Shown in pieces: positions 24,662 to 51,976 of a DNA stretch of 64,000 nt. A model generated the notes under the pieces. The model was not told the DNA's origin. It was given only the letters and a program-made list of their open reading frames with translations, and did not search any database. Origin of the DNA: an uncultured delta proteobacterium (GTDB taxonomy: Bacteria > Desulfobacterota > WTBG01 > CAIYCZ01 > CAIRTM01); contig CAIRTM010000011.1 of the NCBI GenBank assembly GCA_903881505.1, positions 5,612 through 69,611 of the forward strand, given 5' to 3'. Within the stretch, counting starts at the first letter, position 1. Every line of letters begins with the position of its first letter. Position numbers and translations under genes: made by a program.

Positions 24662-25015
24662 TTATTTCTTTAAAAATGAGATTAAAAAAAGACTGGCTGA
24701 ACCTAATAGAACAATTCCCAAAATTGCAGCCGGAATCATATAATACAAAGCACCCGCCATTTCATCCAAATTTTGATTAATCATATAAGCAGCTATGCAT
24801 ATTAGTTCAAAAAAAACCAAGTGCCCCACAGAATGAATGGTGAATTTTGTATTAAAACAAAGAGGCATTGCAATCGAATATAAAATAGCCAACACTGAAA
24901 ACAGAATGAAAAAAAGCATGAGATGCCCATCTTTGCCTCTTGTAACGGCGTAAGATGCGATGACCAATAAGGTGCCAAACCAGTATAAATTGAAAATCTT
25001 CAATAGTGATTTCAC
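24662..25015 (-). CDS. Putative immunity protein of the Rhs toxin (117 aa, polytopic membrane protein)
   Basis: Its start overlaps the Rhs stop. Low-GC codon usage matches the toxin C-terminal domain. Four hydrophobic helices. Confidence 0.6.
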   Translation of the reverse strand: MKSLLKIFNLYWFGTLLVIASYAVTRGKDGHLMLFFILFSVLAILYSIAMPLCFNTKFTIHSVGHLVFFELICIAAYMINQNLDEMAGALYYMIPAAILGIVLLGSASLFLISFLKK

Positions 25016-31000: not shown

Positions 31001-34000
31001 CAGGTATTGTTCATGAACTCGTTCAGGCTGTCACGGGCCTGGTACATGGCGCCGATCTGACCCATGGCTCCCGCCAGGGTGAACCCGATACCGCCCATAC
31101 CCATTGACTGAATCCGGGCCAGCTGCAGCGCCATGACATTCTGCGCTATGCCGCGGATCAATGTATTGACGGGAACATTGCCGTCGCGGATCGAATCTGA
31201 ATTGGTTATGAGGGCTGCTGCAGCGTCGGCAAGCACGCCTGCAACCTGCAGCCAGTCGCTGTATTGAGGATCGACAAAATCCCGGTTCCACTTGGCGATC
31301 TCTTCGACAATCTGGCCGCCGCCGATGACGTACGGATCGGCGCCCTTGAGGCTGATGAAATAGCCCATGCGAAAGGGCCCCATGGGATTGCCCGGCGGCG
31401 TTGTCGATATGATGCCCACGCCGGTGAAGGTGCCGACATCAATGCGCTGGGAGGGCACAAGCACGTTCTGCCCATAGTCCGTGAGCTCGCGGCTGACGAT
31501 TTCAAGGTCTTCGGGCTCAAGCTGCAAAGGGGACAGATCAAAGCTTCCCATGTCCTGCGTGAACTGATACAGCGGCACATTTCTACCCACGGCCTCGGCC
31601 ACAAGCTTCACCGCCGAGACGGACTCCTGCCGGAAGAGCTGCTGCAGCACCAGGTGCTCGAACACCGAGCCCTGCATGCCCTCGGTGCGCAGGAAGGCAT
31701 CTCTCAGCTGCCAGTCGGCATCCTGCGGCACTGTCTGGACCCGCTCGGAGACATCGACACGGATATTGGTCTCGGTGACGCGCACGGGCCATACGTCGAA
31801 CAGGTAGGACACCTTCAGGTGCCGTGCAATGCGTATATCGGAAGGGTTGCGGTACCAGCGCACGCCCAGCTGCCGGGCGATCAGGTCGGCATGCGTGTCG
31901 AGCTGGTAAAAATAGGAGCTGCCGGTGATGTGCAGCTGCTCGCCCAGCAGCCGGTCCAGCTCGCTTGTGCGCTCGCCCAAGGCTTCGTTAAAACGCGCGA
32001 GCGCCGCGGTGATGTTTTCAGAACTGGCGCGGCCCAGGCCCAGCACAATCGCGGTGTGGTCGCCGACCGTGGTGACGTAATCGCTTGTGCGGGACGGGTT
32101 CTTGACGTCCTCGCCCGGCCGTACGATTGCTACGCGCAGGGTCTCCTCGAGTCCCATGGATATCTCGGCGTCCTTGCCCGTGTTCTCCGCCACCAGACGG
32201 CCGTTCAGGCGCAGCTGCGGACGCATGTAGATCATGTACAGGGGCGTTTCCAGAAATGTGCCCGTGTATTCGGCCAGGGTTTCGTAGTCTGCGCTCGTCG
32301 AGGGCACGTAGGACAGCACCAGGCGCTGGCCCGCCACCTGTGAGGTGGGCGCGCGAAAGTCGATTTCAAGAGTTTCAAGCTCGATGTCCAGGTCAACGCC
32401 CCAGTAGGAAAGCTGCACACTCACCTGATGGTGCTCTTCAAGGGGCACGGAGCTGTAGGTCCGGTACTGCGACTGGTCGGTCTCAAAGGGCAGCGTTATC
32501 GGCAGGATCGGGAATGTCTCCTTCGCCACCTCGTCATAGCCGTAAAAATCACGCAGCGTCATGTCCGGATGGTCATCGAGAAAGTCCTGCAGCCTTGCCT
32601 GGTAGTCTGCCGTGGATGCTGTCATGAACTCCTGGAACGATTCGGTATCGATATCAACCAGGCCGCTGTCGGCGATGTTGCTGAACTGATCGAGGCTCTG
32701 GATGAACTGCTCTGCATCGAAACCAAGGCCCTGTTCATTGACCGCCCCCGCAGTGCTGCGGTACTGCTTGAAGGCCGGGGCAAGGGGCACCCACAGCTTG
32801 TGCCTCTCGCTCTCAGCGGTGCCGCGGTAGTCGGCATAGGGAAGGTAGACCTCGACACAGGTGTGCAGGAATGAAGACTGCGCGATCGTTGAGCCGCGGT
32901 AGAGGTCCTCGACATCTTTGATGTCGCCGGTCGCCAGGTAATAGCCCACCATCGCCGGCGACTTCAATCCAAGCCACTGCATTGCGCGGTTGATGTCTAC
33001 GATTGCGCGGACCTCGGCGTAGCGGGCCGGATAGCCTGAATAGCGCAAAAGTGCTATCAGCAGCGAGGCGGTATCAACATCGTTGCCGCAGCCCTCGGCG
33101 AGCGTCTGCGCGGCCCCTTTGAGGCTGCCCCGGTAGGGCTGAAAGTCGATAGTGTTCTTGACCCACTCGTATATCCGTATGGGGTTTTTGCCAAGACTGT
33201 CGGCAAGCGCCTTGATGGGCGCGGCAAATACCACATCCCCCAGCTCATCCTCGAGCAGATCGGCGGCAGCCGGAGGCGCAACTGCGGCAATCGTCGCCCG
33301 GCTGAGAAGGCCCTGAACCGAAGAAACAGAGGCAACATGAATCGGCCGCGCGCGCCGGGGCAGATCCAGGTCCCAGGCCGCAACAGGGGAAAGCAGCGGC
33401 TGTGAAGGCTGCCCGGCGGACAGGGAGTCTTTGGAATTGAATTTCACCATTTTGAAGACGCCGTTTTCTGCCAGCAGGCCGAAGCCGGGGCGGGGCATGT
33501 TGAGCTCGCCTGTCTCGGCCGCAGTCAGTTCACGGCCCTTGGGCCTTACAATCTCTGAGGAGGTTTTGCTTTTGCGGGCGTTGCGGCCTAGTGCGGAAGA
33601 ACGCTCCATGGCCTCGATACGCTTCTTGCGGCCGCCCAGCAGGCCCCGCTCGATCATACCGTTAATGTCGCCGCGCCTGGTGCAGTCTGACAGGGCTGCA
33701 AAGCGTTTCTTCAGGGCGGCTGCCTGCGCCCGGTGGCGCTCAACAAAAACATCATCGGCTCCGTTCTCAAGGAGCTCCTGCTCCATCAGCGCAAGCAACC
33801 TGTCGAGCTCGCCGGTGCGGCCGGCAAAGCGCTCTGCGCTTTTCAAAAACGCTGCCAGGGCTTTTTCAGTGCGGCGTGACTGCATATCTTCAAATTTCCG
33901 GTCGAGCTGCTGCATGTGGCTCGACATCTCACTCCCCAGCTGCTCGAAACGCTCATACGTGCCGGGGTTGAACAAACTCTGGGCACCCGGCGCCGGAACA

Positions 34001-34053
34001 AAAAACAGACAACCTGCAAGAAGGGCACCTGTAAGCAGAGACAGCTTTTTCAT
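25012..34053 (-). CDS. Rhs/YD-repeat polymorphic toxin (3013 aa). Signal peptide, transglutaminase-like core, long YD-repeat shell, RHS core, and a C-terminal alpha/beta-hydrolase (lipase/PGAP1-like, Tle-like) toxin domain.
   Basis: N-terminal MKKLSLLTGALLAGCLFFVPAPGA. Transglutaminase-like core GCGNDVDTASLLIALLRYSGYPARY. Dozens of YDxxGR YD repeats. RHS core ending YRYYSPVLGRWLNRDPMGE...DPLGD. C-terminus VVVLVHG...IIAHSQGT (GxSxG nucleophile elbow). GC content falls over the last ~900 bp. Confidence 0.9.
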   Translation of the reverse strand: MKKLSLLTGALLAGCLFFVPAPGAQSLFNPGTYERFEQLGSEMSSHMQQLDRKFEDMQSRRTEKALAAFLKSAERFAGRTGELDRLLALMEQELLENGADDVFVERHRAQAAALKKRFAALSDCTRRGDINGMIERGLLGGRKKRIEAMERSSALGRNARKSKTSSEIVRPKGRELTAAETGELNMPRPGFGLLAENGVFKMVKFNSKDSLSAGQPSQPLLSPVAAWDLDLPRRARPIHVASVSSVQGLLSRATIAAVAPPAAADLLEDELGDVVFAAPIKALADSLGKNPIRIYEWVKNTIDFQPYRGSLKGAAQTLAEGCGNDVDTASLLIALLRYSGYPARYAEVRAIVDINRAMQWLGLKSPAMVGYYLATGDIKDVEDLYRGSTIAQSSFLHTCVEVYLPYADYRGTAESERHKLWVPLAPAFKQYRSTAGAVNEQGLGFDAEQFIQSLDQFSNIADSGLVDIDTESFQEFMTASTADYQARLQDFLDDHPDMTLRDFYGYDEVAKETFPILPITLPFETDQSQYRTYSSVPLEEHHQVSVQLSYWGVDLDIELETLEIDFRAPTSQVAGQRLVLSYVPSTSADYETLAEYTGTFLETPLYMIYMRPQLRLNGRLVAENTGKDAEISMGLEETLRVAIVRPGEDVKNPSRTSDYVTTVGDHTAIVLGLGRASSENITAALARFNEALGERTSELDRLLGEQLHITGSSYFYQLDTHADLIARQLGVRWYRNPSDIRIARHLKVSYLFDVWPVRVTETNIRVDVSERVQTVPQDADWQLRDAFLRTEGMQGSVFEHLVLQQLFRQESVSAVKLVAEAVGRNVPLYQFTQDMGSFDLSPLQLEPEDLEIVSRELTDYGQNVLVPSQRIDVGTFTGVGIISTTPPGNPMGPFRMGYFISLKGADPYVIGGGQIVEEIAKWNRDFVDPQYSDWLQVAGVLADAAAALITNSDSIRDGNVPVNTLIRGIAQNVMALQLARIQSMGMGGIGFTLAGAMGQIGAMYQARDSLNEFMNNTWILYIDYENGKYNWENRYFPSIDKGERTVKYALINLNGFGVSGKTPAISSTHPDFELVGDPVPTAGTLGEGYFTFRMKNEKNLVPGDEIPITLLITSPEGREVRTTGTFIAAPCRLKNVYIDAQDDQSAYPLMPGSTVEVRAEEPYEGMELEWQIDNERTSPGILGSIIAQEGTSCWLSIDESTRLEGGGGFIVLNVKDVKSPACEITRSIAVGCESCAQKSGCPACALKNIDLNQGIDFKISLGKAAGGMSAGSLFIQSDRLRPDAAKPKSPDAVGDHTEAALGLESLAQGLEAVYAPSGEFSSEIYDVYKLYGRDVLRQIVAPEAFVDILPVDDYSYQVLFYPPSARGEKNDEGIYEVNFGYSPIAQWTVRNQSASKDVCESLLITENRGDAAKRYEYRKPEGSNVWTLIKGDSDQVVEVQTTDIGSDERAEVRTEKDRSGRVASKTSTLYRTYAWGRAVVEQTIDPDAARLTTRTQYDPATGRVLGRTQPDGSATTYSYDAQGRTSVEVSSWLDSAAGAGAGAARARHYDYTPIDPQDSGLPEDSHRPRTITETILGTVVAKAWYSYVRDAHGNRIETVEQAASPGASFGASGNQRTTRTYYSKGTGTVNSGRLRSVAYSDGRLDSYSYVRGAYSRPDDGSKGTFAEGSGSDLQNTLTRGTVTSPEGIAGTTIRENTIASGLGRTMMQETLVYTGSGYESVSWTVNTYDHEGHVIRVVNSDGTETSANWDCCGMTDETDARGIVTGYEYDFMKRVTHMRRPGAHGQVTTAYTYDGSGRRLTSTVSAGDLSLATESAYDKAGRLTSSTAADGLVTKYSYAAGGRVSTVTRPGGATEITERFLDGQVKSVSGTGTIARFYEYGVNPDGTRCTTVYTKDLSGPVWEKTVTDMLGRTVRVEKPGFGGTVEAAENFYNNKGQLVKTTATGMAATLYVYDEIGNQVMSGLDVDGNNVLAPASGDRITASTSVYVSADDAWWQKAEQKVFATENSATPTTVATQLSRFTGLGSGGLVSENVSIDTLGNRVVSRSVINRAAGTETATVDYPDSTIDAVSFSVNGLLMSSTGKSGVTLTYAYDDLGRRVGLTDPRTGRSTTGYTSHGRVAWVQDAAGNRTLYNYNSATGEKISETNPDNTTVRYSYNNQGQITRQWGSATYPVSYEYDGYGRLARMLTYREGAGFDGETFPAGASGDETLWIYDEATGLLKAKQDAEGKQVAYTYASGGRLASRTWAREGGTIVTSYNYDPATGELAAIDYSDATPDVQFSYDRLGRQKTVSDAAGSRTFAYNSALQLETETMTGLMNETITRDYDGLGRSSGFSLGAGYDITYAYDPTGRFINVGWTGDSLSGNAVYSYVPNSHLLQSTTTDRGLITTYSYEPNRNVRTNIENAYNAQIISNYAYAYDSMGRRTSVKNSGAAFDRAAFNLYGYNSRSELTGSQSYIGTDTGDTTTPVNAEARTFAYDNIGNRESAIEALTKQITYDPNPLNQYTQITTNAGAPVTDDLHYDEDGNLVAGSVAGAVRTALTYDAENRLISVEPQTPAPGTRKVAFTYDYMSRRVQKQVFDYNADSWSAASDTRFLYDGWNLICEVSIPTSNPGLQTSVLYVWGLDLSGTLQGAGGIGGLLTRISDNAHYYTCDANGNVGQLVDTDGIIAAHYEYDPFGNTINSNGLLAEANPYRFSTKYLEAETGLYYYGYRYYSPVLGRWLNRDPMGEAGGVNLYNFVFNNTNDCIDPLGDVVVLVHGVNTDAAWFSTAEKGLKAYWNSTGQNIQEIIPFKWGDPSTSFGLSRKQGGQPNYATDSVAGMRDSNRKYMMVSVDRLKRILNLLNSIKEKEKSCEPISIIAHSQGTIISLAALQGGSKVDTFIMMGSPLDVLPFNSETNDLLKALSQIRGKTYNYWSPNDEWAWFKGGIGAKGDEIAKIQELGWITNRKFAPDETMGKYILPHDKPFDEYNHSDYMLSADFFTNIHGPDLAPAPDIIVSKNPAINQIKAMGSIW

Positions 34054-34823
34054 TAAAGAGCTCCTTTAGTGCGGTGATGGTCGTTTGTGGACGAAGTAGG
34101 CGTTGTGGACACTGTGGACTCAGTTGACCGGCACCGGGAGCGCACGCGGTAGAGGCGCTCGGTGAAACCGCCTTCATTTTCAAAGGCCTGTGCAAGGGAA
34201 GCGAGCTGACGGTCAAGCAGCGCACAGGCAACGGCCACAAGCGCAAGAGCGCCGTTGGCGGCTATTTCGGGAAAACCGGGAGTGGACATGGTGGACGATG
34301 TGGACGGCGTGGACGAAAAACCTTTATTAATATTTTTTTCAAAATGTCCACTGCGTCCACATCGTCCACTTGGTCCACTGTTGTACACCTCCCGCACCCA
34401 GTGCGCAAACTCATCGGCCGTTGTGCAGCGCCGGTCAACCAGGGCCTGCCTGCGCGCGTCCCCGCGCTGCCAGAGGGGCAGGCCCCGCTGGCGCAGAAAA
34501 TCCTCATAATCGACCCGGAGTTCCTCAAGGCTTGCGCGTGCGACACTGGTGAGCCGCAGCTCGGTTTTTTTCGAAGTGCCGGATGCCTGGCTGCCCTCGG
34601 CGATATTTTGCACGCCTGAGCGCGCAGCCTGCACCATCTGGTCGCGCGTTCGGCTGCGCCGGTCGACATAGCGCTCGCAGAAGCGCACGGTCACGTCATG
34701 CACGAGACGGGCGACTTGAAAGCTTTTCAGCCCGCGGTAGCCGCCGTGTTTTGGTATAAGCTTTTCAGTCATTCTGGGGCTCGCATTCAGGCAGTGTGCC
34801 GATGAACGGTTCATGGCCGACAT
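34053..34823 (-). CDS. Four-helix-bundle protein (TIGR02436 / 23S rRNA intervening-sequence protein family, DGR Avd-like fold). The 3-prime third overlaps the repeat/palindrome region.
   Basis: The likely start is MTEKLIPKHGG. It overlaps the upstream stop as ATGACTGA. Family motifs QMVQAARSGVQNIAEGS and LTSVARASLEEL. The ORF then reads through the GTGGAC arrays as STPSTSSTMST. Whether the downstream ~380 bp is coding is uncertain. Confidence 0.65.
   Translation of the reverse strand: MSAMNRSSAHCLNASPRMTEKLIPKHGGYRGLKSFQVARLVHDVTVRFCERYVDRRSRTRDQMVQAARSGVQNIAEGSQASGTSKKTELRLTSVARASLEELRVDYEDFLRQRGLPLWQRGDARRQALVDRRCTTADEFAHWVREVYNSGPSGRCGRSGHFEKNINKGFSSTPSTSSTMSTPGFPEIAANGALALVAVACALLDRQLASLAQAFENEGGFTERLYRVRSRCRSTESTVSTTPTSSTNDHHRTKGAL
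34084..34381. repeat. Arrays of head-to-tail 9-bp TGTGGACNN repeats (resembling high-GC DnaA boxes), arranged as a ~37-bp-arm palindrome around a 27-bp AT-rich core, plus a third array
   Basis: 34279..34316 GTGGACATGGTGGACGATGTGGACGGCGTGGACG. AT core AAAAACCTTTATTAATATTTTTTTCAAAA. 34344..34381 TCCACTGCGTCCACATCGTCCACTTGGTCCAC (inverted). 34084..34128 TGTGGACGAAGTAGGCGTTGTGGACACTGTGGACTCAGTTGACC. Confidence 0.6.
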
Positions 34824-37800
34824 TCATGGAGCCCTGCCATGACTTGACGATAACTGTGCCTGAAATAATGCCGCTGTTGTTTGTCAGTTCAGCCAGCGGC
34901 GCAAGCACACTGCCATTCAATGCCACTGCCGTACAGTCAAAGGACGTCGCCTCAAAAAAATTAAAAAGAATATAGCCGCGCATCCAGCCCGGAACAGCCA
35001 TGCCGATATGCGAAACTTCCGTATGCTCGCCACTGATATTTATGATAACCGTTGCGTTTCGCGGGATATCGCTCAGGTGCAGGCTGCTGGCGCTTCGCAG
35101 CTGCTGAGCGCTGATGTTGAATATCTGGACGGGGTTTGTGCCGCTGCCGCGCAGGGTCAAAACAGCGGCACAGGTTGATGCGGTTCCGGTGGGCGCAAGG
35201 CCGCCAAGACGCGTTGAGAGCAGGCGAAAGCGCGATGATTCCTGCTCGAAGCCAAAGGGTAGCTCTGCATTGCCGGCAACCGTTGCGCCCCGAGCCATTG
35301 TGCGGCGCACCATGCAGGACACACCGTCAACACTGCCGGAGGCGACGATGCTGCCCCGGTGGACCACGCCGATTCCGTACTCAATGTCGCCGCCGGAGAC
35401 AAGAACGCCACGCTCCGGAGCGCCGTGCGGCACATATGTGCCCATAACGACATTCTCAAGCTCGACATCACCGGCCGCGGCAACACGACCCGAAACGGTT
35501 GCATGCTGCGATGCCAATGGGCCAAGCGAAAAAATGCTGTAGTCCTGCGCAACGCCCAGACTATCGACACACTCAACCGGCTGATTGGGTATGGTAATCG
35601 CGCAGGTGTCGGGAATGCTGTCGAGCTCTCCGTCATTGACGATGAGCTGTATAATATAGGCACCGGCTTTATCGGCTGTAAAGACCGGGTCGGGCAGCGT
35701 GCTGTCATTGAGCACGGCCGTGCTGCCTTCAGGCGCGTTTACTATCGCCCACTGGTACGTAAGCGGGTCGGCATCGGGGTCATGGCTGGCTGAAGCGTCA
35801 AGACGCACAGCATCGCCTTCATTCACTTCACGGTCAGGACCGGCATCGGCAAGCGGGCGGCGGTTGCGCGTTGTGACCTCCAGTTCAACAGGATCGCTTG
35901 CATACTCAAAATCGCGTACAACGAGCTGCAGCCGGTACACACCCGCCATGTCAGCTTGGAAAACAGGATCGGAAGCAAAACGATCGGACAGTTCAGCCGC
36001 GCTGCCTTCGGGCCGGGCGGCCAAGGTCCACTCATACTGCACGATCGTATCGTTGTCGGGATCATAGCTTGCGGATGCTTCAAGCTGCACCGTTTCACCG
36101 ACCTCGATGAGCAGGCTTTCACCGGCGACCGCAAGCGGCGGGCGGTTTTCGGTGGTGACGAGCACGCTGTCGCTGCGGCTCCGGCACATGCCGTCAGAAA
36201 CGCTCAGGCGCAGCTCATACGCGCCGTGCCGATCCGGCAGCAGCGTCGGATTATAGATATCAGAACCGGCAAGCCGGGTGATGCTTCCCTCCGGGGACGC
36301 AGCCAGAGCCCAGCTATAGCTGATGCTGTCGCCGTCAGCATCGTAACTGCCGGAGCCGTCCAAGCGGGCAAAATCACCAACATGTACCAGGATATTTTCA
36401 CCGGCAACGGCAACCGGACAGCGGTTAATAATGCCCAGCGGGGCGAATGCAAGGTTGTGAGCGGTACCGTCAATCATGGTGGACAATATAATCACATAGT
36501 CGCCGCAGGCCAGACCTGCGCTCTCCAGCACGCTCGTGCCGCTGCAGTCGTTACCATCAAACATGCAGGTGGTTTCGAAAACCGTTGTCTCCTGCCGCGT
36601 GGAGGTGTTAACAGCCCTGGAAACCAATGCAGTTTCATCGAGTGCGGTATTACCGCTGTTGGTAACGCCATAGTTCAGCGCAACATCCTGCCCGCGATGC
36701 ACCTGTGCTGGCTCTGCGGTAAGAAAGGCGCCCAGCCCCCTGCCGCCGTCCGCGCTGGGTGCAATGGTGAAATGCGTTCTGTCCGATGCAACCGGGGTAC
36801 CGTCCTGCTCAACGCTCAGGTTCAGCGTGTAGAGGCCGGGGGCATGTCGCGCCGTATTCCAGGCCTGCTCCCAGGAGCGGCCTGCAAGCGGCGGCAGCAC
36901 CCCAACAGCATGCTCATCGGTATAGAGAACGTCACCTCTGGGGCTGAGCAGCTCGACAAAAGCGCTCAGGCCGCTAAATGCATAATTGGGCGAAAAGCTC
37001 TGCAGCACACTGCTGATGCGCACCTGCGCATGATCATAATAGAGCCTGCGCTCCGTGCTGACATCGGCGCCGACCGTCCGATCAGCCAGGATCACAAAGG
37101 GGGCAGCTGCCGCGGCGCGGCGCTGACCGTCTTCAAACAGGGTGGCCGCAACACTCAACTGCCCGGCCGGCGCGCTGCCCGTATTCCATACAAAGTCATC
37201 TATAACCACGGTGCCGCCGGGCGGCAGCACAACGATACGTCCTTTCGCAGGCTCGGCGGCGACCGTTCCGTTACTGTCAAGCATTGCCACGTCAAGAAGT
37301 ACGGTCCGTTCGACGGGAGAACTGTTGGTTATACGGGCTGTAATGACAACATCCTCGTCATATCCATACTGATCGCGGTCAAGGTTCAGCTCGAGCGCAA
37401 GTCCGCTGGGCACAACACGGATCAGGGCACTTCCTGTGTTGTTGTTCTCATTCTGTTCCCTGATCATGCCTTGGGGATCGGACTGCACGATGATGCGGCG
37501 CTCGCCCGTGCGCCCGGCTGTGTCAAACAGAGCGCTTGCCGTGCGGCTCCCGCCATGCGGCACGATCTCATGGATGATGCGCTCCGCGATCAGTTTTTCA
37601 GCCGCGACCTCGCTGTCGTAGAAATGCACCGTGACGCCGTCGACATCCGCTCCGAGGTTTCGCACCGCAGCCGACACGCTTACCAGCGCGCCTTCAACCG
37701 GAGATGCGTCTGCAAAGCTGATATCCGTATCGCGCACCTCAAGGTCGCTCAGGCTGCGGGGCACGACATCGATAGGTCGAACAGCACTGTTGTTGACCCG

Positions 37801-40800
37801 GTTGACATCATTGACCGCATTGACAGGATCAACAACAACATGGATATAGTTGCTGCCCAGCTGACCGTGCGTGTCCCACGGTTTGAAAACAATATCGCTT
37901 GCACCGGGCGCAAGCGATCCCAGCGCCTGATCGGACCCGATCGGCTCAGTGCCGTTCAGGAAGCGAACCGAGGTCGGGGCGGACGCGATGAGGCCGATAT
38001 TACGCACCCGGGCCGCGATGAGGACCGTGCGGCCCTCATCAGGCGCTTCGGGGCTGAACATGATATCCGTGCCTGCAATCGCAAGATCGGCAACAACATC
38101 GGACGTGTTCTCAACAACGAACGCACCCACGCCATAGCCCGGAACACCTTCAATGGTCCGCGCTTCGATGCTGACGATATCGGTACCGGCCGAATGAGCG
38201 GCGCTCAGCACATGGGTGCCGATAAACACCCCGCCAATCTTGGCAAATGCGATGCTGTGGGTGCTGCCTTCGTATTCGGTGACGCTGCCCGAGACCTGCT
38301 GCACCTGAAAGGCATCCTCTTCGGGTTCGACGGTTACAATCACCGTATCACCGGGCTGATAAGCAGGCTTATCAAACGATATCGCCAGCTCAGGCCCCGG
38401 GGTATAGTCAGCCAACGCAAGGGCCCTGACCGCATAACCTGTAGGGTTTGTGCTGCTGCGCAGCCCTGGCAGTATCGGCCAGCCGCCGTCAGCATTCTGC
38501 ACGGCCAGCAGCCATTGCACGGCACGTGCGGTTCCTACCCCCTGGTTATCGGTCTGGATCAGGGCAAGAAGGACGCAGGCTGTATCCTGAACCGTGCTTT
38601 CATACTCGCCCCAGCCGCCATCCGCATTCTGACGCTGCTGCAGCCAGGCAACAGCGTCATCGACCTCTGTCTGGTAACCACCAAACTTGTTAAGTATTTT
38701 TAAACTGTTGGCAGCATGAGAAATAGTTTCCCAATTGACTGTACCTGTCTTCTGGAGCAGAAGCCACTCAATTGCCTGCTCTGCAAGGTCTCTCTGCGCG
38801 CCGGTAAGCATGACACCATCAGACAGCAAACCCAGCACGCAAAGAATCGTAGGATTGATTTCTGACGGACCCCCGCCTGCAAGACTGTACCGGTACCAGC
38901 CGCCATCGTCATTCTGCTGTCCAAAGAGATATTGAATCACTCCAGCCATGGCGTCAGTTTTGCCGCTGACATTTAGCCCTGTTTGACCCAAAGCCCTGAG
39001 AACTGCTGCGCCCGCAGTAAGATGGTGCTGGGGAATCATGGAAAACTGTATGTGCCAGTTGCCATTGCTTTTCTGCGTGCTGATAATACGGACAAGTGCC
39101 TCCACTATTGTTGCATTGTATCCGCCGGCATCATTCATGCTATCCAATGCAAGAAGTGCCAGTGATGTGGGGATGGCCTGGTCATAGGGGTTTTGAAAAT
39201 CTCCATCCGGCTCAACCATCATGGTCTTAAGCCATTGAAACGCCTTCCTGATGGCTGCCCCGCCGCCTGTGTCACTGCTGCGATACAGGCTTATGACAGA
39301 CTCTGCCGTCATACGAGGAGACTCCAGCGGCGTAGCTGATGGCTTTTCATCAACCCAGCCGCCATTCGCAGACTGAAGGGCCTTCAGGTCGTTCATCGTG
39401 GCCGCTATATCGCCGGCATTTCGTCCGGTGTAAAAAAGCATGGCAAGATAAGCGCTTTTATAATTGGCAACACTCCATATGTTGTCCCTGTACCAATTGA
39501 CCGCCTGTGTAATTGCCGCCTGACCGGCACTGTCGCTTTCATGGCAGGCCCAATGCAGACCGGCAACGGCATAATGCATATTCGTAGGCGCACTTGCCTC
39601 TCCGGCATAGAACCCCCAAAACCCGTCAGGGTTACGGCTGTCGAGCAGCCATTGCCGTGCTGCCTGCACTGCAGGATCCTCACGGCTTACCCCGGCTTCC
39701 ATTAAAGCCCACAGGGCATGCCCTGTATCCCGCACCGGAGAACTGTTCAACACGCCATCATCCCGCAAATACCTTTGCAGCCATATGAGTGCATTACTGA
39801 TGACAGGTGATGAAATATCCTCTCCAACAGCAACCAGGGCCAGAACTGAGTCTGCTGTTGCAGAAACGTTGTTTTCCCAGCTGCCGTTGGTTGCCTGCGT
39901 TTCACGAACACGCCGCAGAATCGTCGCATACATGCCGCTAAACTCGGGATCGAGGTAGCGGCCTGAGATATGCAGGGCATGAAGCGCAGCAGCATTGGCC
40001 CGCGCTGGAGCAAAATCTTCCCATCCGCCAAGGCTGTGCTGATGCTCAACGAGCCACTGGACGCCCTGAGAGACAGCCCTGTCCTTGAGGTTCTGTGAAT
40101 ACGCGATGGCAACAGTGGCAGCGGCGGTATTGTTTGCCTCATTGCTCTCGGCCAGCCGGCCCTGACCGGTTCCGTCGTCGTCAACCACGACAAACAGGTG
40201 ATACTCTCCTTCGACCGGATCTTCCCAGATAAGCGTGACATCTGCATACGCGCCCGAGGCAAGCCCGGAGGCTGTCTGCTCAACGCCGAGCAGTATGGCG
40301 CCCTGAGCCGGATCGCCGCTATAAAAGGCGACATCAATGCCGGGATCAACATCCACGGTGCCGGTATTGCTGACACTCACAGTTATTGCAGCACTGTCGG
40401 GCAGATTGTTCGGATTGCGACGGACACGCGAAGCCGCAAGATCAAGCACGGGATCTTCTTCAGGCACACCCACGGTGAGCGCAAACGATGCGCTGTTGTT
40501 GGCTGTGCCGGATTCCGGCACGAATCCACCCGGATCTGCGACAACATGCAGTGTGTGAGCGCCTGCCGGCAGGGAAATTGAAAAGGAGGCCGGTGCGCTG
40601 GCGTCGGCGGCAACCAGCGGCAGATTCACCCGGCCAAGTTCGGGGCTGGTGTCAGGCGGTCCGCTGTATACAGCCGCTTCGACATCGTAGGCCTCATGCG
40701 TACCGATATTGTGTATAACGGCATCCAGTGTGAAGGATTCTCCGGGCAGAAGAGGGCCGGAGTCAACCGAGAGGTCATCTGCAGTTATTGACAGATCGGG

Positions 40801-43422
40801 CGAACTGACCAGCAAGGTCATACTGACTGTATTATTGTATTCATTCGTTTCTGTAATTGCGTCCTGAGAGTCGGCTTGCACGAAGACGCTCTGCGAAGCG
40901 GCAAGCAGCGCAGCCCGAGCGGAAAAAGCGAGACTGACACACGAGTGAACCTCAAGCGAATCAACCCTCGCAACGGCAATCGGCTGCATACCATCATGCG
41001 GCTGCCCTGCATCCAGGGCGATATCAAAAGGATCAGTAACCGGCCGCGAGCCCTGATTGCACACCGTAGCGTACATGGTTACGTCGTCGTCAATAGACGG
41101 TGCTGACGGAGAGAACGCGAGGCTGTCCGCACTGATCGCGAGATCGGGTCCCGGGTCATGGATAACCGCGAATGAACCCCAGGCACTATTGTTCTCCTCA
41201 TCCACTTCGGCAAAGCTTTCTTCAGGATCCACGAACGCATACAGGGTCTGCTCGCCGCCGCGGCCAGCAGTGTCGAACACGCCGCTTGCGTACAGCGACT
41301 GCCCCGCGCCGAGCCAGGCAATCGTCGGAAGGCTATCAAGAACCAACCTGCCGCCGCCGAGCGGATCGCCGTCATACACGCCGAACGCGACGCCTGCAAG
41401 GCCTACATTGCCGTGATTGGTGATCCTGCACCTGACAATAGCGGGATCGCCTGCATGAGGCATGGCAGGGGTTATGGTTAGAGCATCAACACCAAGATCA
41501 ACAACATCCAGAACGCCCAGAACATTCAGTGCTGCATACGCGATATTATTTGACGGTGTTTCGTCCTGCTGTGCCGGAGAGACAGTGACGGCCGCGAAGA
41601 TGCGGTAGGCGCCGGGATCAAGACTCACGCCATCCAGTGTGAGCGTAACGCTGCCACCGGCGCTGACCTCAACACCGCTGAAGGCATGCAGCAACGCGGC
41701 TGATTGCGCGGCATCAACAGCAAACAGCTCCACCACGGCATCCCTGGCGGCGACATCGCCCCTGTTGCGGATTAGGGCTGAAATGCTGATCTGTTCGTCT
41801 TCCCGCGGATAGGCCGGTAAAAAGGAAAGGCCGGATTGTTCAACCGCAAGATCGAGGCCCTGAATCACGCCCGGCATAACCGTGAACGGGCAGGCTTTGT
41901 CATTGTTATCGACGTGTTCTTCAACAACCCCGGGGCCTGCGGAAACCGACACCACGTATCCATAGGCACCGGCCGGCATGGTCAGTTCAAAATCAGCCCG
42001 GCCGCTGCAGCCTCCGCAGACATTATTGAGCGCAACCTCGAGCAAGGGAGCGCTTGCAGCCGGATTGCCCTCATACAGACCCACGGTGACAGGGCCGGCA
42101 TCGCTTTCACCCAGGTTGTGAACCTGCGCTGCAAGCGTGAATGGCTCATCCGCCAGCAGCGCTGCATGGTTCAGCTCAATGCCCGCGATGATCAGGTCAG
42201 GCAGAGTGCCGGCTGTCAGACTTTTAACCGCCACATTGTCGGCAGTGCTGATTTCCTCAACAAGGTCATGCGGGTCGACAATCACATACAGGTTGGCTCG
42301 GCCCGGCTCGCCGCTCAGCACAAAACCCAGCTGGACACCCGTATTGCCGCCCGGTGCCAGCGATGCAACCTCGCCGCTGGCAAGGAACTGCCCGCCTGCT
42401 TCGGGGTCACCACGGTACAGCTCGATCTCTATGTTTTCAGCCGTACTGCTGCCGGTATTGCGCACCTCACAGGTAACCGTAACCTGCTGGCCTGCAGCAG
42501 GATGAGCGGGCTGCACGCTGATGCCGGATGGATGCACCTGCAGATTCGGAAGGTCGATGCCGGCGCTTGCATGAAGGGCGGCAAGCGCAAGCGCGGTGTC
42601 GCGAACCCGCCCGTTCCAGCTGCCGCTGACCGGGTCCTGAACACTCAGCAGAAAGGCTCGCGCATCGGACACGGCCTGAGACTGGCTGCCTTCAGCCTGG
42701 AGAGCCAGAATCGCCAAAGAGGTTTCAACAACGCTGCTGCCATCCTCGCCGAAACCGCCGTCAACATTCTGATGCCCGGCGATAAAACCCGCCGCCCGCT
42801 CTGCAAATGACGACAGGTTATAGCGCGGCTGCAGCCTGTTCATGACAATGAGCGCCCGGCACGTCACCTCGAGACTTTCCGGGCCGCTGCCGGAATAGGA
42901 AAAAGCGCCGCTGCCCTGCTGACGGGCGGCGAGATATCCAAGGGCCAGACCGATGGCCTCGCCATCAATACCTGCCCCCAAAAGCGCGTCCAGAGCCAGA
43001 ATGCTGTCAATCACAGAGCCGGGATACCCGTCCGAAAAACCGAACCCGCCATCGCTGTTCTGCCGAAGAAGCAATTCGGCAACATCCTGATCAACTGCAT
43101 GCGCGTCATCGGCCAGGGCAATAATTTTATGCGCCCGGCAATCGGTTGAAGCGGGTTGCTGTTCGCTGAGATAGTGCCGCGCCGCTTGCACGTCTATGCC
43201 GCTGTCAGGGAAACGCGATACGGCCCGCAGAACCGCTGCCGTATCGCGCACGGATTCCGGCCCCCAGAGCCCGCTGTCGGGATCCTGCTCTTTGTCAAGC
43301 CATTCCAGTGCAACAGCCAGCTTCTGGGTGTAATCATCGGCATGGGATGCAGAAACCATGCAAAAGACAAAAAATGCAGCCCACGCAGTCCACAGCCCGG
43401 CAAACTTTCGCATTATTGCCAC
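34765..43422 (-). CDS. Giant secreted surface protein (2885 aa). Two blocks of QW/prenyltransferase-like alpha/alpha-toroid repeats, many CARDB-type domains, three PKD-like domains, and a C-terminal choice-of-anchor-A-like domain.
   Basis: Signal peptide MRKFAGLWTAWAAFFVFCMVSASHA. QW-like motifs (QNADGGWGEY, QNDDGGWYRY, HQNVDGGFGEDG, QSANGGWVDEKP). CARDB-like repeats. PKD-like repeats NRPPLAVAGE..ASASYDPDNDTIVQYEWTL. C-terminal LGVAQDYSIFSLG...NISGEHTEV. No CGEQ thioester motif. Confidence 0.85.
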   Translation of the reverse strand: MAIMRKFAGLWTAWAAFFVFCMVSASHADDYTQKLAVALEWLDKEQDPDSGLWGPESVRDTAAVLRAVSRFPDSGIDVQAARHYLSEQQPASTDCRAHKIIALADDAHAVDQDVAELLLRQNSDGGFGFSDGYPGSVIDSILALDALLGAGIDGEAIGLALGYLAARQQGSGAFSYSGSGPESLEVTCRALIVMNRLQPRYNLSSFAERAAGFIAGHQNVDGGFGEDGSSVVETSLAILALQAEGSQSQAVSDARAFLLSVQDPVSGSWNGRVRDTALALAALHASAGIDLPNLQVHPSGISVQPAHPAAGQQVTVTCEVRNTGSSTAENIEIELYRGDPEAGGQFLASGEVASLAPGGNTGVQLGFVLSGEPGRANLYVIVDPHDLVEEISTADNVAVKSLTAGTLPDLIIAGIELNHAALLADEPFTLAAQVHNLGESDAGPVTVGLYEGNPAASAPLLEVALNNVCGGCSGRADFELTMPAGAYGYVVSVSAGPGVVEEHVDNNDKACPFTVMPGVIQGLDLAVEQSGLSFLPAYPREDEQISISALIRNRGDVAARDAVVELFAVDAAQSAALLHAFSGVEVSAGGSVTLTLDGVSLDPGAYRIFAAVTVSPAQQDETPSNNIAYAALNVLGVLDVVDLGVDALTITPAMPHAGDPAIVRCRITNHGNVGLAGVAFGVYDGDPLGGGRLVLDSLPTIAWLGAGQSLYASGVFDTAGRGGEQTLYAFVDPEESFAEVDEENNSAWGSFAVIHDPGPDLAISADSLAFSPSAPSIDDDVTMYATVCNQGSRPVTDPFDIALDAGQPHDGMQPIAVARVDSLEVHSCVSLAFSARAALLAASQSVFVQADSQDAITETNEYNNTVSMTLLVSSPDLSITADDLSVDSGPLLPGESFTLDAVIHNIGTHEAYDVEAAVYSGPPDTSPELGRVNLPLVAADASAPASFSISLPAGAHTLHVVADPGGFVPESGTANNSASFALTVGVPEEDPVLDLAASRVRRNPNNLPDSAAITVSVSNTGTVDVDPGIDVAFYSGDPAQGAILLGVEQTASGLASGAYADVTLIWEDPVEGEYHLFVVVDDDGTGQGRLAESNEANNTAAATVAIAYSQNLKDRAVSQGVQWLVEHQHSLGGWEDFAPARANAAALHALHISGRYLDPEFSGMYATILRRVRETQATNGSWENNVSATADSVLALVAVGEDISSPVISNALIWLQRYLRDDGVLNSSPVRDTGHALWALMEAGVSREDPAVQAARQWLLDSRNPDGFWGFYAGEASAPTNMHYAVAGLHWACHESDSAGQAAITQAVNWYRDNIWSVANYKSAYLAMLFYTGRNAGDIAATMNDLKALQSANGGWVDEKPSATPLESPRMTAESVISLYRSSDTGGGAAIRKAFQWLKTMMVEPDGDFQNPYDQAIPTSLALLALDSMNDAGGYNATIVEALVRIISTQKSNGNWHIQFSMIPQHHLTAGAAVLRALGQTGLNVSGKTDAMAGVIQYLFGQQNDDGGWYRYSLAGGGPSEINPTILCVLGLLSDGVMLTGAQRDLAEQAIEWLLLQKTGTVNWETISHAANSLKILNKFGGYQTEVDDAVAWLQQRQNADGGWGEYESTVQDTACVLLALIQTDNQGVGTARAVQWLLAVQNADGGWPILPGLRSSTNPTGYAVRALALADYTPGPELAISFDKPAYQPGDTVIVTVEPEEDAFQVQQVSGSVTEYEGSTHSIAFAKIGGVFIGTHVLSAAHSAGTDIVSIEARTIEGVPGYGVGAFVVENTSDVVADLAIAGTDIMFSPEAPDEGRTVLIAARVRNIGLIASAPTSVRFLNGTEPIGSDQALGSLAPGASDIVFKPWDTHGQLGSNYIHVVVDPVNAVNDVNRVNNSAVRPIDVVPRSLSDLEVRDTDISFADASPVEGALVSVSAAVRNLGADVDGVTVHFYDSEVAAEKLIAERIIHEIVPHGGSRTASALFDTAGRTGERRIIVQSDPQGMIREQNENNNTGSALIRVVPSGLALELNLDRDQYGYDEDVVITARITNSSPVERTVLLDVAMLDSNGTVAAEPAKGRIVVLPPGGTVVIDDFVWNTGSAPAGQLSVAATLFEDGQRRAAAAAPFVILADRTVGADVSTERRLYYDHAQVRISSVLQSFSPNYAFSGLSAFVELLSPRGDVLYTDEHAVGVLPPLAGRSWEQAWNTARHAPGLYTLNLSVEQDGTPVASDRTHFTIAPSADGGRGLGAFLTAEPAQVHRGQDVALNYGVTNSGNTALDETALVSRAVNTSTRQETTVFETTCMFDGNDCSGTSVLESAGLACGDYVIILSTMIDGTAHNLAFAPLGIINRCPVAVAGENILVHVGDFARLDGSGSYDADGDSISYSWALAASPEGSITRLAGSDIYNPTLLPDRHGAYELRLSVSDGMCRSRSDSVLVTTENRPPLAVAGESLLIEVGETVQLEASASYDPDNDTIVQYEWTLAARPEGSAAELSDRFASDPVFQADMAGVYRLQLVVRDFEYASDPVELEVTTRNRRPLADAGPDREVNEGDAVRLDASASHDPDADPLTYQWAIVNAPEGSTAVLNDSTLPDPVFTADKAGAYIIQLIVNDGELDSIPDTCAITIPNQPVECVDSLGVAQDYSIFSLGPLASQHATVSGRVAAAGDVELENVVMGTYVPHGAPERGVLVSGGDIEYGIGVVHRGSIVASGSVDGVSCMVRRTMARGATVAGNAELPFGFEQESSRFRLLSTRLGGLAPTGTASTCAAVLTLRGSGTNPVQIFNISAQQLRSASSLHLSDIPRNATVIINISGEHTEVSHIGMAVPGWMRGYILFNFFEATSFDCTAVALNGSVLAPLAELTNNSGIISGTVIVKSWQGSMNVGHEPFIGTLPECEPQND

Positions 43423-43818
43423 CCCGCTTTATTCGGCAGCCTTAAGTATATACAACAATGGCCACCCCAGAATTTGTAGATACAAAATATTCACTGGTCA
43501 CTATGGTTTAATAGTGATTGACACTAATATAATGTCGCAAAACAGCCAGTTTTCTTCCCGGACTTTATAAAAATATAAGGTGCAATCTCAGCGAATTTGC
43601 CGGACACTGGCCGGGCGTATACATAGAGGTACAGATGTAGTCCTGAATTTTAAAGGCGGGTTCTTTGGCCTGTACGGCCACAAAATAATGTGCTGTCTTC
43701 CCCTGTGTATAAAAAAAATACACCCCCGTTTCCCGCTTGCGAAAAGCAGAGGAAATACGCTATACTCCCCCCGCAACCGCCGTGAGCGTCAACCGTAACC
43801 CCTGATACGAATTGCGCC

Positions 43819-45282: not shown

Positions 45283-45334
45283 AACTGGCCCTGAAACAAT
45301 ACTGGCGAGTGAACGGAGAGGAGCCCCATCAACC

Positions 45335-50939: not shown

Positions 50940-51015
50940 GCCATAACCTCCTGCAATCGATTATATGTCCGCATCTTAACTGCAACATTGCCGCGTACCG
51001 TCGGCAGCAAGTGCC

Positions 51016-51450: not shown

Positions 51451-51505
51451 GGGCGGGTGTATATGTGTGCATATACCAGACTCAGAACAATTTCAAGCAT
51501 AAAAA

Positions 51506-51536
51506 AAGGCCTCAGCGCCTGGCTGAGACCCGGATA
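51506..51536 (-). terminator. Rho-independent terminator ending the ribosomal alpha operon (after rplQ)
   Basis: Minus strand: GGGTCTCAGCCAGGCGCTGAGGCC followed by T7. Confidence 0.55.
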
Positions 51537-51962: not shown

Positions 51963-51976
51963 GATACCATTCCCAC

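Follow-up and report, generated by a model that had tools for sequence, protein, structure and literature searches.

A giant exported protein with terpene cyclase-fold toroids is encoded next to a transglutaminase-like RHS toxin and may form a two-protein envelope module with it

Results

The gene for the giant protein and its product

The stretch of DNA analyzed here (64,000 nucleotides from an uncultured delta proteobacterium, referred to as the window) contains, on its minus strand, an uninterrupted ORF (34765..43422) of 2885 codons when counted from the GTG at 43422. The probable start is the ATG at 43413, with the GTG as the alternative, which places the gene for the giant protein, designated G, at 34765..43413 and gives a product of 2882 aa (ORF list and translation). 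This ATG form is present in public collections, where it is a singleton at 90% clustering. The initial annotation had described a large exported protein with toroid, CARDB, PKD, and choice-of-anchor-A domains; Pfam and NCBIfam searches confirmed every one of these domain assignments, and the strand was corrected to minus. From the N to the C terminus, G consists of a signal peptide, a single toroid, seven CARDB domains, a double toroid, about six Ig-like domains (two of them CARDB), three PKD domains, and a choice-of-anchor-A β-helix. The Sec signal peptide (MRKFAGLWTAWAAFFVFCMVSASHA; 43339..43413, minus strand; read from the sequence) contains no lipobox on inspection and is probably cleaved by signal peptidase I between SHA and DD. 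In most relatives, the first toroid starts at residue 20–35, which fits a cleaved leader. No transmembrane segment was detected in G, and only 24 of its 2885 residues are lysines.

The toroid blocks

The first toroid block is a single α/α6 toroid "head" (residues 29–292; 42547..43338, minus strand), which is the family-defining module; the second is a double α/α toroid (residues ∼1111–1670; 38413..40092, minus strand) that resembles the β-γ didomain of class II terpene cyclases (AF2 and Foldseek for both). Two separate blocks had been proposed from QW-type motifs, and the motifs quoted in support are present in the sequence of G: QxxDGG[WF] occurs five times (QNSDGGF at 121, QNVDGGF at 218, QNDDGGW at 1503, and QNADGGW at 1598 and 1642). 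The proposal hinged on whether the QW segments would model as α/α toroids, and they did so in both blocks, the head as 12 helices (pLDDT 95.4) and the double toroid as 24 helices (pLDDT 89.2, pTM 0.89). Matches to SQHop_cyclase_C/N and Prenyltrans were obtained with Pfam. In Foldseek searches, the head aligned with the single-domain class II terpene cyclases 8pak/8paj at a TMq of 0.80–0.83, compared with 0.5–0.6 for thioester domains (TEDs), and the best matches of the double toroid were SHC, OSC, and drimenyl-diphosphate synthase (TMq 0.52–0.59, TMt up to 0.71). For both blocks, terpene cyclases ranked first and the thioester domains of A2M/C3/TEP second, with the TEDs of A2M, A2ML1, TEP1, C3, C4, C5, and CD109 among the matches of both fold searches. 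Terpene cyclases were also the best match of the toroids by sequence profile.

The motifs that would indicate catalysis were missing. Neither DxDD nor DDxxD was found in either toroid block by a motif search that included D.DD and D.D[DE]. The catalytic DxDD tetrad of SHC aligns with "s-v-l-D" in the family profile and with S-V-I-D in the head of G, and in the family alignment, conservation in the head falls on the recurring structural QW and DTA positions. The β subunit of protein prenyltransferases carries a Zn-binding Asp/Cys/His triad inside its toroid; no such triad is indicated for G, no Cys or His being among the invariant or near-invariant columns of the head and double-toroid alignments. 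In line with the initial annotation, the 2885 residues contain no thioester motif of the CGEQ, CG[ED]Q, or C[GA]EQ type. The isopeptide motif TQxxxW was likewise not found in G, and Lys-based intramolecular isopeptides are impossible in CARDB domains 1–7 because these contain no lysine. Given the absence of DxDD, DDxxD, and CGEQ, the three toroids of G are probably, on sequence grounds, non-catalytic binding modules. Loss of DxDD excludes class II cyclase chemistry alone, not every conceivable activity. Class II terpene cyclases (SHC, OSC, drimenyl-diphosphate synthase, and MstE-type single-domain enzymes) share the α/α6 toroid and the QW repeats with G; unlike them, the toroids of G lack DxDD, are exported, are set within an Ig array, and have no isoprenoid pathway context, with no isoprenoid pathway genes within the window.

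The stalk and the C-terminal domain

Pfam scored CARDB in G with 292 bits over eight stretches, and a phmmer self-search delimited nine domains. The first seven form the first stalk segment (residues 292–1096; 40135..42549, minus strand; Pfam and phmmer), with limits at 292–398, 408–507, 523–628, 641–747, 759–866, 875–978, and 996–1096 (phmmer). The second stalk segment (residues 1681–2335; 36418..38385, minus strand) consists of one unclassified β domain, CARDB 8 (1784–1880) and CARDB 9 (1892–1997; both by phmmer self-search), and about three unclassified β-rich domains. The roughly four β-rich domains of G (1681–1780 and 1998–2335) match no family, Pfam remaining below threshold for 1685–1790 and 1995–2340. 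The "about ten" CARDB-like Ig domains first reported are refined to nine CARDB domains, with approximately four further unclassified β-rich domains. The three PKD-like domains were recovered by Pfam (K319L-like_PKD / PKD_4 on separate pieces) at residues 2340–2423, 2433–2513, and 2527–2610 (35593..36405, minus strand). Residues 2622–2875 (34798..35559, minus strand) form a choice-of-anchor-A/pAdhesive_15 β-helix, of which residues 2626–2875 matched the full length of TIGR04215 (model positions 1–255) with 171 bits compared with a cutoff of 29, and PF20597 (pAdhesive_15) with 151 bits. G terminates 10 residues past this domain. As had been noted initially, this C terminus carries no recognizable sorting signal; neither LPxTG nor a match to an NCBIfam sorting-signal model was found in G. 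Domains of the choice-of-anchor-A type have been described as cellulose-binding lectins in Acanthamoeba and as adhesive-trail proteins in diatoms, and not as anchors (PMC6541295; bioRxiv 10.1101/2023.03.06.531300). G combines a tandem Ig-like stalk with a putative adhesive domain, as fibrillar adhesins do; the latter also have an anchor, and none was found in cis in G. The notion that the toroids are more conserved than the stalk was dropped, as identity to orthologues varies little from domain to domain (54–78%).

The operon downstream of G

G is followed in the same operon by a four-helix-bundle gene, the gene for a 3013-aa RHS toxin tipped with a lipase, and a candidate immunity gene. The genes are tightly packed: the stop codon of G overlaps the start of the four-helix-bundle gene, the stop of the latter overlaps the RHS gene start by 1 nt, and the RHS stop codon overlaps the start of a 117-aa ORF. 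The RHS toxin, left unmentioned in the initial annotation, is the informative neighbor of G, and the context given there was incomplete in this respect. The four-helix-bundle gene (34053..34772, minus strand) encodes a cytosolic protein (TIGR02436 / 23S_rRNA_IVP and 4helix_suffix; NCBIfam and Pfam), the 239-aa form of which is a cluster representative. It is missing from one related locus (L003), forms part of the RHS ORF in another (L005), and is 80–84% identical where T (see below) is only 38% and G about 49% identical. It is probably a passenger.

A module designated T takes up residues 1 to ∼1000 of the RHS protein (31054..34053, minus strand; Pfam Transglut_core); its parts are a signal peptide containing a lipobox-like LLAGC, a coiled region, a degenerate transglutaminase-like core (289–405), and a conserved ∼600-aa extension. 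The rest of the protein (25012..31053, minus strand; RHS_repeat, Rhs_assc_core, Tle3, Lipase_2) consists of a linker, an RHS/YD shell (∼1500–2752) that ends with the core motif DPxG...DPLG, and a C-terminal Tle3-like lipase toxin (∼2753–3013) with AHSQG at 2860. The shell is 70–74% identical in L003 and L005. The toxin tip is confined to this window; at this end, L005 carries a Tle1-like domain and L086 carries DUF900. The 117-aa ORF (24662..25015, minus strand; ORF and sequence) encodes a multi-pass membrane protein within a low-GC cassette (41.5% GC across 24001–26000 compared with about 59% in the flanks) and has no homologue in any other fetched locus; it is a candidate immunity gene.

The 3013-aa protein, with its signal peptide, degenerate core, RHS repeats and core motif, toxin, and adjacent candidate immunity gene, has the same layout as the Sec-dependent inactive-transglutaminase RHS toxins (Zhang, de Souza, Anantharaman, Iyer & Aravind 2012, PMC3482391), polymorphic toxins in which an inactive transglutaminase domain follows the signal peptide and precedes the RHS repeats. 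No signature neighbor gene was given for this class (Zhang et al. 2012, PMC3482391). The present case differs from that description in that T is ∼1000 aa long in the window, is also encoded on its own, as a membrane-anchored protein, and is systematically accompanied by a toroid-headed giant protein, G being the partner of the toxin and not a toxin itself.

Over 770–830 aa, the T module of the window is 28% identical to stand-alone T proteins of ∼1060 aa encoded beside distant relatives of G (E 1e-68 and 2e-69), and the stand-alone and RHS-fused forms are homologous. Stand-alone T has a signal peptide and one to three strongly hydrophobic C-terminal helices, which are lacking in the RHS-fused forms. 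The Transglut_core of T has an invariant His, and its Asp position is not conserved. Canonical transglutaminases show the spacing GxCxxF...R, and mapping of the catalytic Cys in T requires a two-residue register shift relative to it; with this mapping, the putative catalytic position is Gly in the window protein and in 34 of the 60 family members overall, and Cys in the remaining 26. Judged by these residues, the transglutaminase-like core is apparently inactive in the window protein and in most of its relatives.

Relatives of G and their pairing with T

The architecture of G had appeared unusual, and it is not a one-off. Full-length orthologues (P0008–P0013) were found at 43–70% identity, and more than 60 other giant proteins (2000–5000 aa) carry the same toroid head at the N terminus, followed by Ig-type arrays. 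Exported toroid domains are therefore common in sequence space, though uncharacterized. The ∼570-aa double-toroid unit is shared with other giant proteins, and proteins of 700–1020 aa carry it N-terminally. Exported toroids of the terpene cyclase type are common in metagenomes; neither a curated family nor literature on such proteins was found.

In the window, whose G head is row 1 of the head alignment (A1), T lies 0.7 kb downstream of G in the same operon. This agrees with the family proposed here, in which an A1-type head is accompanied by a T homologue of like orientation, mostly less than 1 kb and up to about 3 kb away in the loci read. A Transglut_core gene neighbors the toroid-headed giant protein in every relative whose context was read: it is adjacent or within ∼1 kb in L001, L003/L004, L005, L086, the P0014 contig, L087, L025, and L169; in L088 the distance is ∼3 kb, and in L002 it is 9 kb. 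The pairing spans relatives from 70% to about 27% identity and includes Thermodesulfobacteriota, Myxococcota (Archangium violaceum, L169), and a Clostridia MAG. The reverse search gave the same picture. Downstream of T, a full-length toroid head was encoded on the same strand in 20 of the 23 metagenomic loci that extend at least 5 kb beyond T (median gap 1.7 kb), and in 28 of 36 loci when at least 3 kb was required. About three of the 23 T loci had no G within 10 kb; an RHS-less T-toxin fusion (L094) and a stand-alone T (L158) are T loci without G. The order is T then G in most loci, and G then T in the window and in Archangium. The idea that T and G are separated by a conserved third gene was considered and rejected, as the small ORFs located there are unrelated to one another. 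A genome scan with five close double-toroid sequences returned mostly distant toroid proteins of Poribacteria, Acidobacteriota, and Streptomyces, and among these loci T was nearby only in L025 and in L006, a close (60%) relative riddled with frameshifts. Genes for S8 peptidases recur near G/T loci.

The divergent kinase and regulator genes

A sCache histidine kinase gene (43819..45282, plus strand) and a sigma-54 response regulator gene (ORF 44981..46684, plus strand; real start probably near 45335) lie upstream of G in divergent orientation, as previously noted and as verified by Pfam. Only close relatives share this synteny; at more distant loci both genes are missing. No sigma-54 −24/−12 element (TGGCAC-N5-TTGC-like, up to two mismatches) was found in 43423–43818, and across the whole window such matches were fewer than in shuffled sequence; upstream of G there is just a weak sigma-70-like site, on the opposite strand. 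The regulatory link to G that the initial annotation had raised is thus not supported, nor is membership of the kinase and the regulator in the system; they are neighbors of G.

Discussion

Comparison with known systems

The ice-binding adhesin of Marinomonas primoryensis and the LapA-type RTX adhesins have a tandem Ig-like stalk with ligand-binding modules towards one end. G resembles such fibrillar or giant adhesins in its Ig-like stalk and in the β-solenoid "ice-binding-like" adhesive domain towards one end. In contrast to those adhesins, it bears a Sec signal peptide where they have a type I secretion signal at the C terminus, and it lacks RTX repeats and any recognized retention or sorting module; it contains terpene cyclase-fold toroids, which are foreign to those adhesins, and its putative anchor is a separate protein. 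Another organization that comes to mind is that of the Tc toxins (TcA plus the TcB-TcC RHS cocoon), in which a receptor-binding protein of roughly 2500–3000 aa is encoded immediately upstream of a cocoon with a swappable C-terminal toxin. The likeness of the G/RHS pair to Tc toxins is organizational only: the N terminus of the RHS protein is transglutaminase-like and not, as in TcB, SpvB/β-propeller. Homology of G to TcA was rejected because Pfam detected no VRP1, TcA pore, or neuraminidase-like domains.

A possible function of the G-T pair

G may be envisaged as a Sec-exported, non-enzymatic, fibrillar adhesin-like protein, whose stalk would be built of ∼13 Ig-type domains (CARDB and unclassified) and three PKD domains and whose choice-of-anchor-A β-helix, at the far C-terminal end, would be the likely carbohydrate- or surface-binding tip. 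The N-terminal toroid head defines a large family of giant exported proteins, which would work with a co-encoded T. Most T proteins would be held in the cytoplasmic membrane by their C-terminal transmembrane helices, and since G has no anchor of its own and T is membrane-held, we infer that T is the docking or anchoring partner of G. In the clade of the window, an RHS shell and a swappable toxin (here the Tle3-like lipase), accompanied by its own candidate immunity gene, would have taken the place of the membrane anchor of T, and through the operon, a polymorphic toxin that acts on contact would be coupled to a long adhesin. Adhesion by G, docking on T, G-dependent delivery of the toxin, and crossing of the outer membrane would all be parts of such a scheme. 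That G is an exported adhesin-like giant docked on or anchored by T, and that the pair couples adhesion to an RHS toxin in this clade, has in our estimation an even chance of being correct. A further-reaching version is tentative and, at present, rather doubtful: the toroid head would be a specific docking receptor for inactive-transglutaminase T, and G and T together a previously unrecognized, widespread two-protein envelope module, with T either membrane-anchored, for surface display of the giant adhesin, or fused to RHS.

Two considerations bear on how far the scheme extends. Conserved adjacency of G and T is equally expected for co-regulated proteins that never touch. Moreover, the host lineage is diderm (Thermodesulfobacteriota / "delta proteobacterium" MAGs), and no outer-membrane translocation route for a protein of 2882 or 3013 aa is evident within the window; the G-T pair could be periplasmic or released instead of surface-displayed.

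Other explanations

The adhesin-type domains of G would also suit a free-standing adhesin or matrix protein that lies near T through clustering or co-regulation and has no physical partnership with it, and this would be compatible with the three of 23 T loci without G, the variable genes between T and G, and the gene order that differs among clades. This explanation is nevertheless considered unlikely because the pairing holds in both directions across three or more phyla and at identities as low as about 27%, which is much tighter than loose clustering of genes for secreted proteins, and because the anchor that is absent from G is present in stand-alone T.

Alternatively, T might be an active transglutaminase or cysteine protease that processes or cross-links G, an envelope, sheath, or matrix protein in that case, with the head as the recognition handle. 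The Transglut_core fold with its invariant His, the S8 peptidase genes recurrent near the loci, and the Cys retained at the putative nucleophile position in 26 of 60 homologues would be consistent with this, and with the latter, the T proteins of some family members may act on G as active proteases or cross-linkers, a mechanism other than docking. Against this, the Cys is Gly in the window protein and in 34 of the 60 relatives, and the Asp position is not conserved. In addition, the N-terminal transglutaminase domains of RHS proteins have been classed as inactive (Zhang et al. 2012, PMC3482391), and the scarcity of lysine in G (24 of 2885 residues, none in CARDB1–7) would leave few amine donors for transglutaminase cross-links. 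As a general account, modification of G by T is thus judged quite improbable.

The second-ranking fold matches raise the question of whether G could be an A2M/complement-like protease trap or envelope-defense protein with TED-type toroids, comparable to the thioester-less bacterial A2M homologues. Like G, A2M, C3, and TEP have extracytoplasmic α/α toroids flanked by β-sandwich domains, and weak profile and fold matches connect them: TED_complement (PF07678) matched G with 23 bits and is listed among the precomputed matches of many relatives, MG2 (PF01835) is listed for several relatives, and A2M/complement TEDs appeared in both fold searches. In A2M, however, the TED is nested in a CUB domain within a scaffold of MG domains that includes a bait region. 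The toroids of G are not inserted in CUB and are flanked by CARDB domains; Pfam detected no MG2, CUB, bait-region, or receptor-binding domain in G; the thioester Cys-Gln motif is missing; and the TED matches are clearly poorer than those to cyclases. Three toroids distributed along an Ig stalk with a terminal adhesive β-helix are also unlike A2M. A trap of this kind is therefore very unlikely. Finally, it is highly improbable that the toroids are working enzymes on an extracellular substrate (terpene cyclase/prenyltransferase-like, or (α/α)6 glycan lyases or hydrolases) with the Ig and PKD domains as carriers, since, despite their significant resemblance in sequence and fold to SHC, OSC, drimenyl-diphosphate synthase, and prenyltransferase β subunits, faint Pec_lyase matches, and a distant MmpH fold match, they lack DxDD/DDxxD and any conserved Cys or His for Zn, conserve the structural QW and DTA positions alone, and are exported, away from isoprenoid diphosphate pools.

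Implications of a docked pair

Returning to docking of G on T, the conserved giant neighbor offers a concrete hypothesis for how inactive-transglutaminase RHS toxins are held and presented. To our knowledge, no partner or delivery route has become known for the Sec-dependent members of this class since their description in 2012. If the head does dock T, G would be the "missing" trafficking or anchoring partner of these toxins, and a first function would be assigned to exported, catalytically dead terpene cyclase folds, for which the locus supplies a testable context. Should docking prove wrong, a clean annotation of a large, uncharacterized adhesin-like family would still result. Because the G-T pair is present in a cultured myxobacterium, Archangium violaceum, genetics are feasible. 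A further homologue of G (P0027) is from Geotalea uraniireducens.

Architecture of the giant protein

The giant protein G is encoded by an uninterrupted minus-strand reading frame at 34765-43422, according to both the ORF list and its translation. Read from the ATG at 43413, it comprises 2882 aa, the form held in public collections, where it is a singleton at the 90%-identity cluster level and lies on a 71-kb contig. All domains proposed for it in the initial annotation were borne out by Pfam and NCBIfam: matches were to CARDB (292 bits; nine domains by self-search), SQHop_cyclase_C/N and Prenyltrans, three PKD domains, and a full-length choice-of-anchor-A/pAdhesive_15 domain (residues 2622-2875; 171 bits, cutoff 29). 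Scanning the protein in pieces located the PKD domains at 2340-2423, 2433-2513, and 2527-2610, and left unclassified β-rich domains at 1681-1780 and 1998-2335. The QW-type motifs quoted previously are present at residues 121, 218, 1503, 1598, and 1642.

At its N-terminus, G carries MRKFAGLWTAWAAFFVFCMVSASHA|DD, which has the look of a leader for signal peptidase I. No other strongly hydrophobic segment was found in G, a motif search of the whole protein returned no LPxTG, and the chain ends 10 residues past the choice-of-anchor-A domain. Domains of this type are lectin or adhesive β-helices and not anchors, for example in the cellulose-binding Jonah lectins of Acanthamoeba (PMC6541295) and the Trailins of diatoms (bioRxiv 10.1101/2023.03.06.531300). 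G is strongly acidic (net charge about −202) and contains only 24 lysines in 2885 residues, none of them in CARDB1-7 (residues 292-1096; window 40135-42549, minus strand). This scarcity may be an adaptive response to Lys-directed proteases or to cross-linking, or a simple matter of composition.

The operon of G also encodes a polymorphic toxin

Three genes that the initial annotation had missed follow G on the same strand, all with overlapping stop and start codons. The first (34053-34772, minus strand) encodes a 239-aa four-helix-bundle protein (TIGR02436/23S-rRNA-IVP family with 4helix_suffix), the second a 3013-aa RHS protein, and the third (24662-25015, minus strand), the start of which overlaps the RHS stop codon, a multi-pass membrane protein of 117 aa. 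The RHS protein combines a leader with a lipobox-like LLAGC, a Transglut_core domain (residues 289-405), an RHS shell with RDPMG...IDPLG at its end (2726-2752), and a Tle3-like lipase tip (AHSQG at 2860). It is a classic polymorphic toxin with the 117-aa ORF as candidate immunity gene. RHS shells of the sister loci are 70-74% identical to that of the window, and their C-terminal domains are Tle1-like or DUF900; no counterpart of the tip or of the 117-aa ORF occurred in any fetched sister locus. GC content over this part (24001-26000) is 41.5% compared with ∼59% around it, as would be expected if the lipase toxin and its candidate immunity gene had recently been exchanged as a cassette.

The four-helix-bundle gene also occurs in the related loci L001 (18648-19292), L005 (18561-19223), and L086 (9781-10416), is missing from L003, and forms part of the RHS ORF in L005. 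It is 80-84% identical across loci, whereas in L086 G is only ∼49% identical and the transglutaminase-like module only 38%, which suggests either that the gene is mobile and was inserted at a fixed junction between G and that module, or that it evolves under unusual constraint. The toxin cassette is followed by a gene combining Y1_Tnp (IS200-like) with a DnaA C-terminal HTH (23316-24359, minus strand), the N-terminus of which is repeated in a 59-aa ORF fragment just upstream (24356-24535, minus strand). Homologues with 25-57% identity were present in at least nine further loci with G or T (L002, L003/L089, L088, L094, L108, L109/L110, L123, and L159). Such divergence is too great for a single recent IS; the gene may be a recurrent accessory or domesticated one.

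G is paired with a transglutaminase-like module

A Transglut_core gene was located beside G in every relative with readable context, from the closest (L001 and L005; 70% and 69% identity in G) via L086 (49%), L003/L004 (47%), L002 (43%; the gene being ∼9 kb off), and the contig of homologue P0014 (36% over one third of the query) to L087 and L088 (∼27-29%), a Clostridia MAG (L025), and Archangium violaceum (L169). In distant loci, the partner stands alone, with a length of 991-1063 aa, and can be aligned with residues ∼90-990 of the RHS protein in the window at 28% identity (770-830 residues aligned; E 1e-68 and 2e-69). This module, as N-terminal part of the RHS protein or on its own, is referred to as T.

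The association was also observed in the reverse direction. A metagenome scan with an alignment of T yielded 80 loci, whose six-frame translations were searched with an HMM of the N-terminal toroid of G (the head). A full-length head (230-330 bits) was encoded on the same strand in 20 of the 23 T loci with at least 5 kb downstream (median gap, 1.7 kb), and downstream in 28 of 36 with at least 3 kb. L089 is only an apparent exception, belonging to a clade with G upstream of T; L094 and L158 are true ones. No conserved ORF separated T and G among the ORFs compared. The pair is also carried by a cultured myxobacterium, A. violaceum (GCA_000733295.1; L169, 2585-13039), where a toroid-headed, CarboxypepD_reg-rich protein directly upstream of a 1012-aa T is represented by two gene calls (714 and 1720 aa), possibly one gene split by a frameshift. 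This strain could serve as an experimental model for the pair.

T may hold G, and is often degenerate

Stand-alone T proteins start with a cleavable leader and end in one to three strongly hydrophobic helices, with a large extracytoplasmic body in between; no such helices occur in the RHS-fused forms. Because G has no anchor of its own and its near-obligate partner normally does, T would dock G, most plausibly via the toroid head. G itself is best explained as an exported, non-enzymatic, fibrillar-adhesin-like protein, which may have a route across the outer membrane of its diderm host. In the clade of the window, T carries an RHS cocoon and lipase toxin in place of its anchor; the operon would therefore link a contact-dependent toxin, delivery of which might depend on G, to a long adhesin. 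For this chain of steps as a whole, we consider the case evenly balanced. That G is an independent adhesin merely clustered with T is unlikely; the pairing holds in both directions and down to below 30% identity.

Somewhat less probable still is that T is an active cross-linker or protease acting on a structural G. Its core motif is [C/G]-N-x-[F/I/M]-D-T-A-S-L-L-I-A-L-L-R, with an invariant His and a variable Asp position. The putative catalytic Cys is present in 26 of 60 sequences (homologues among L089-L168) and replaced by Gly in 34, including the window. The family may thus comprise both active enzymes and pseudo-enzymes. Inactive transglutaminase domains between leader and RHS repeats of polymorphic toxins have been described and were proposed to bind peptides, anchoring the toxin at the surface; the table of that study lists no signature neighbour gene for the Sec-dependent class (Zhang et al, 2012; PMC3482391). 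Giant Ig-repeat adhesins and such Sec-dependent RHS toxins are known kinds, and what appears new is the tight pairing of T with a toroid-headed family. It leads to a new hypothesis on how inactive-transglutaminase RHS toxins are held or presented.

The toroids lack the catalytic motifs of terpene cyclases

The head (residues 29-292) was modeled with 12 helices (pLDDT 95.4, pTM 0.92), and the middle block, a double toroid, with 24 (pLDDT 89.2, pTM 0.89; model residues 1-591 correspond to 1100-1690 of G). In Foldseek searches of the PDB, the closest structures to the head were the single-domain class II cyclases 8pak and 8paj (TMq 0.80-0.83), followed by MstE, drimenyl-diphosphate synthase, and SHC; the thioester domains of A2ML1, TEP1, C3, and C4 scored lower (TMq 0.4-0.6). 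The middle block resembled the βγ didomains of SHC, OSC, and drimenyl-diphosphate synthase (TMq 0.52-0.59, TMt ≤0.71). Profile searches of PDB sequences gave the same ranking. The QW segments thus model as α/α toroids, so that the domain call of the initial annotation passes its own refutation test.

Motif searches detected neither DxDD, DDxxD, nor CGEQ in either block, and the previously noted lack of a CGEQ-like thioester motif holds for all of G. The position of the SHC acid tetrad reads S-V-I-D in the aligned head. Alignments of 34 head and 25 double-toroid segments contained no conserved Cys or His, the conserved columns being repeated structural Q/GGW and DTA positions. Because catalytic motifs are absent and only structural positions are conserved, we conclude that the toroids derive from the terpene-cyclase fold but are non-catalytic, and that they most likely serve in binding. 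Resemblance to thioester domains would suit an A2M-like trap, a very improbable reading with CGEQ missing; an active extracellular enzyme, which the similarity to cyclases in sequence and fold would suit, is the least probable of all.

The unusual domain mix emphasized initially is real and uncharacterized, but no singular oddity. Full-length orthologues (P0008-P0013) share 43-70% identity, one being named [quoted passage not shown]. The same head starts more than 60 further proteins of 2000-5000 aa, usually at residue 20-35, right after the leader, and is followed by arrays of CARDB, FG-GAP/VCBS, CarboxypepD_reg, PKD, and similar domains. Less common is the double toroid, which is found as a unit in further giant proteins; in a genome scan, close relatives were confined to "delta proteobacterium" and Thermodesulfobacteriota MAGs. 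This ∼570-aa unit is also N-terminal in proteins of only 700-1020 aa (P0099, P0103, P0105, P0107, P0111, P0117, P0125, and P0143), and thus behaves as an independent mobile module. No NCBIfam model names G or T, and literature searches returned nothing on such proteins; what appears to be new is a large family whose exported members begin with a toroid of catalytically dead terpene-cyclase fold.

Genomic surroundings

The sCache histidine kinase and σ54 response regulator reported upstream of G are real by Pfam. A regulatory link to G may exist but is not supported: the 400-nt region upstream of G contains no −24/−12 element, synteny of the two genes is limited to close relatives, alongside unrelated housekeeping genes (MFS, GcvH, M54, and the rpoA-L17 block), and both are missing from distant loci with the pair. 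The island of G and the T-RHS gene lies ∼6 kb from a Sir2 gene and the L17-rpoA-SecY ribosomal protein cluster (50184-63966). The same synteny is found in L001 and L005, which places the island on the chromosome, at a stable position in this lineage. The window further encodes a 961-aa Kelch-type protein (3066-5951, minus strand) and an S8 subtilase of 1239 aa that includes CarboxypepD_reg and InlB B-repeat domains (6910-10629, minus strand). S8 peptidase genes also adjoin G or T in L003 (6625-9120) and L087 (2106-3803), and could encode a processing protease.
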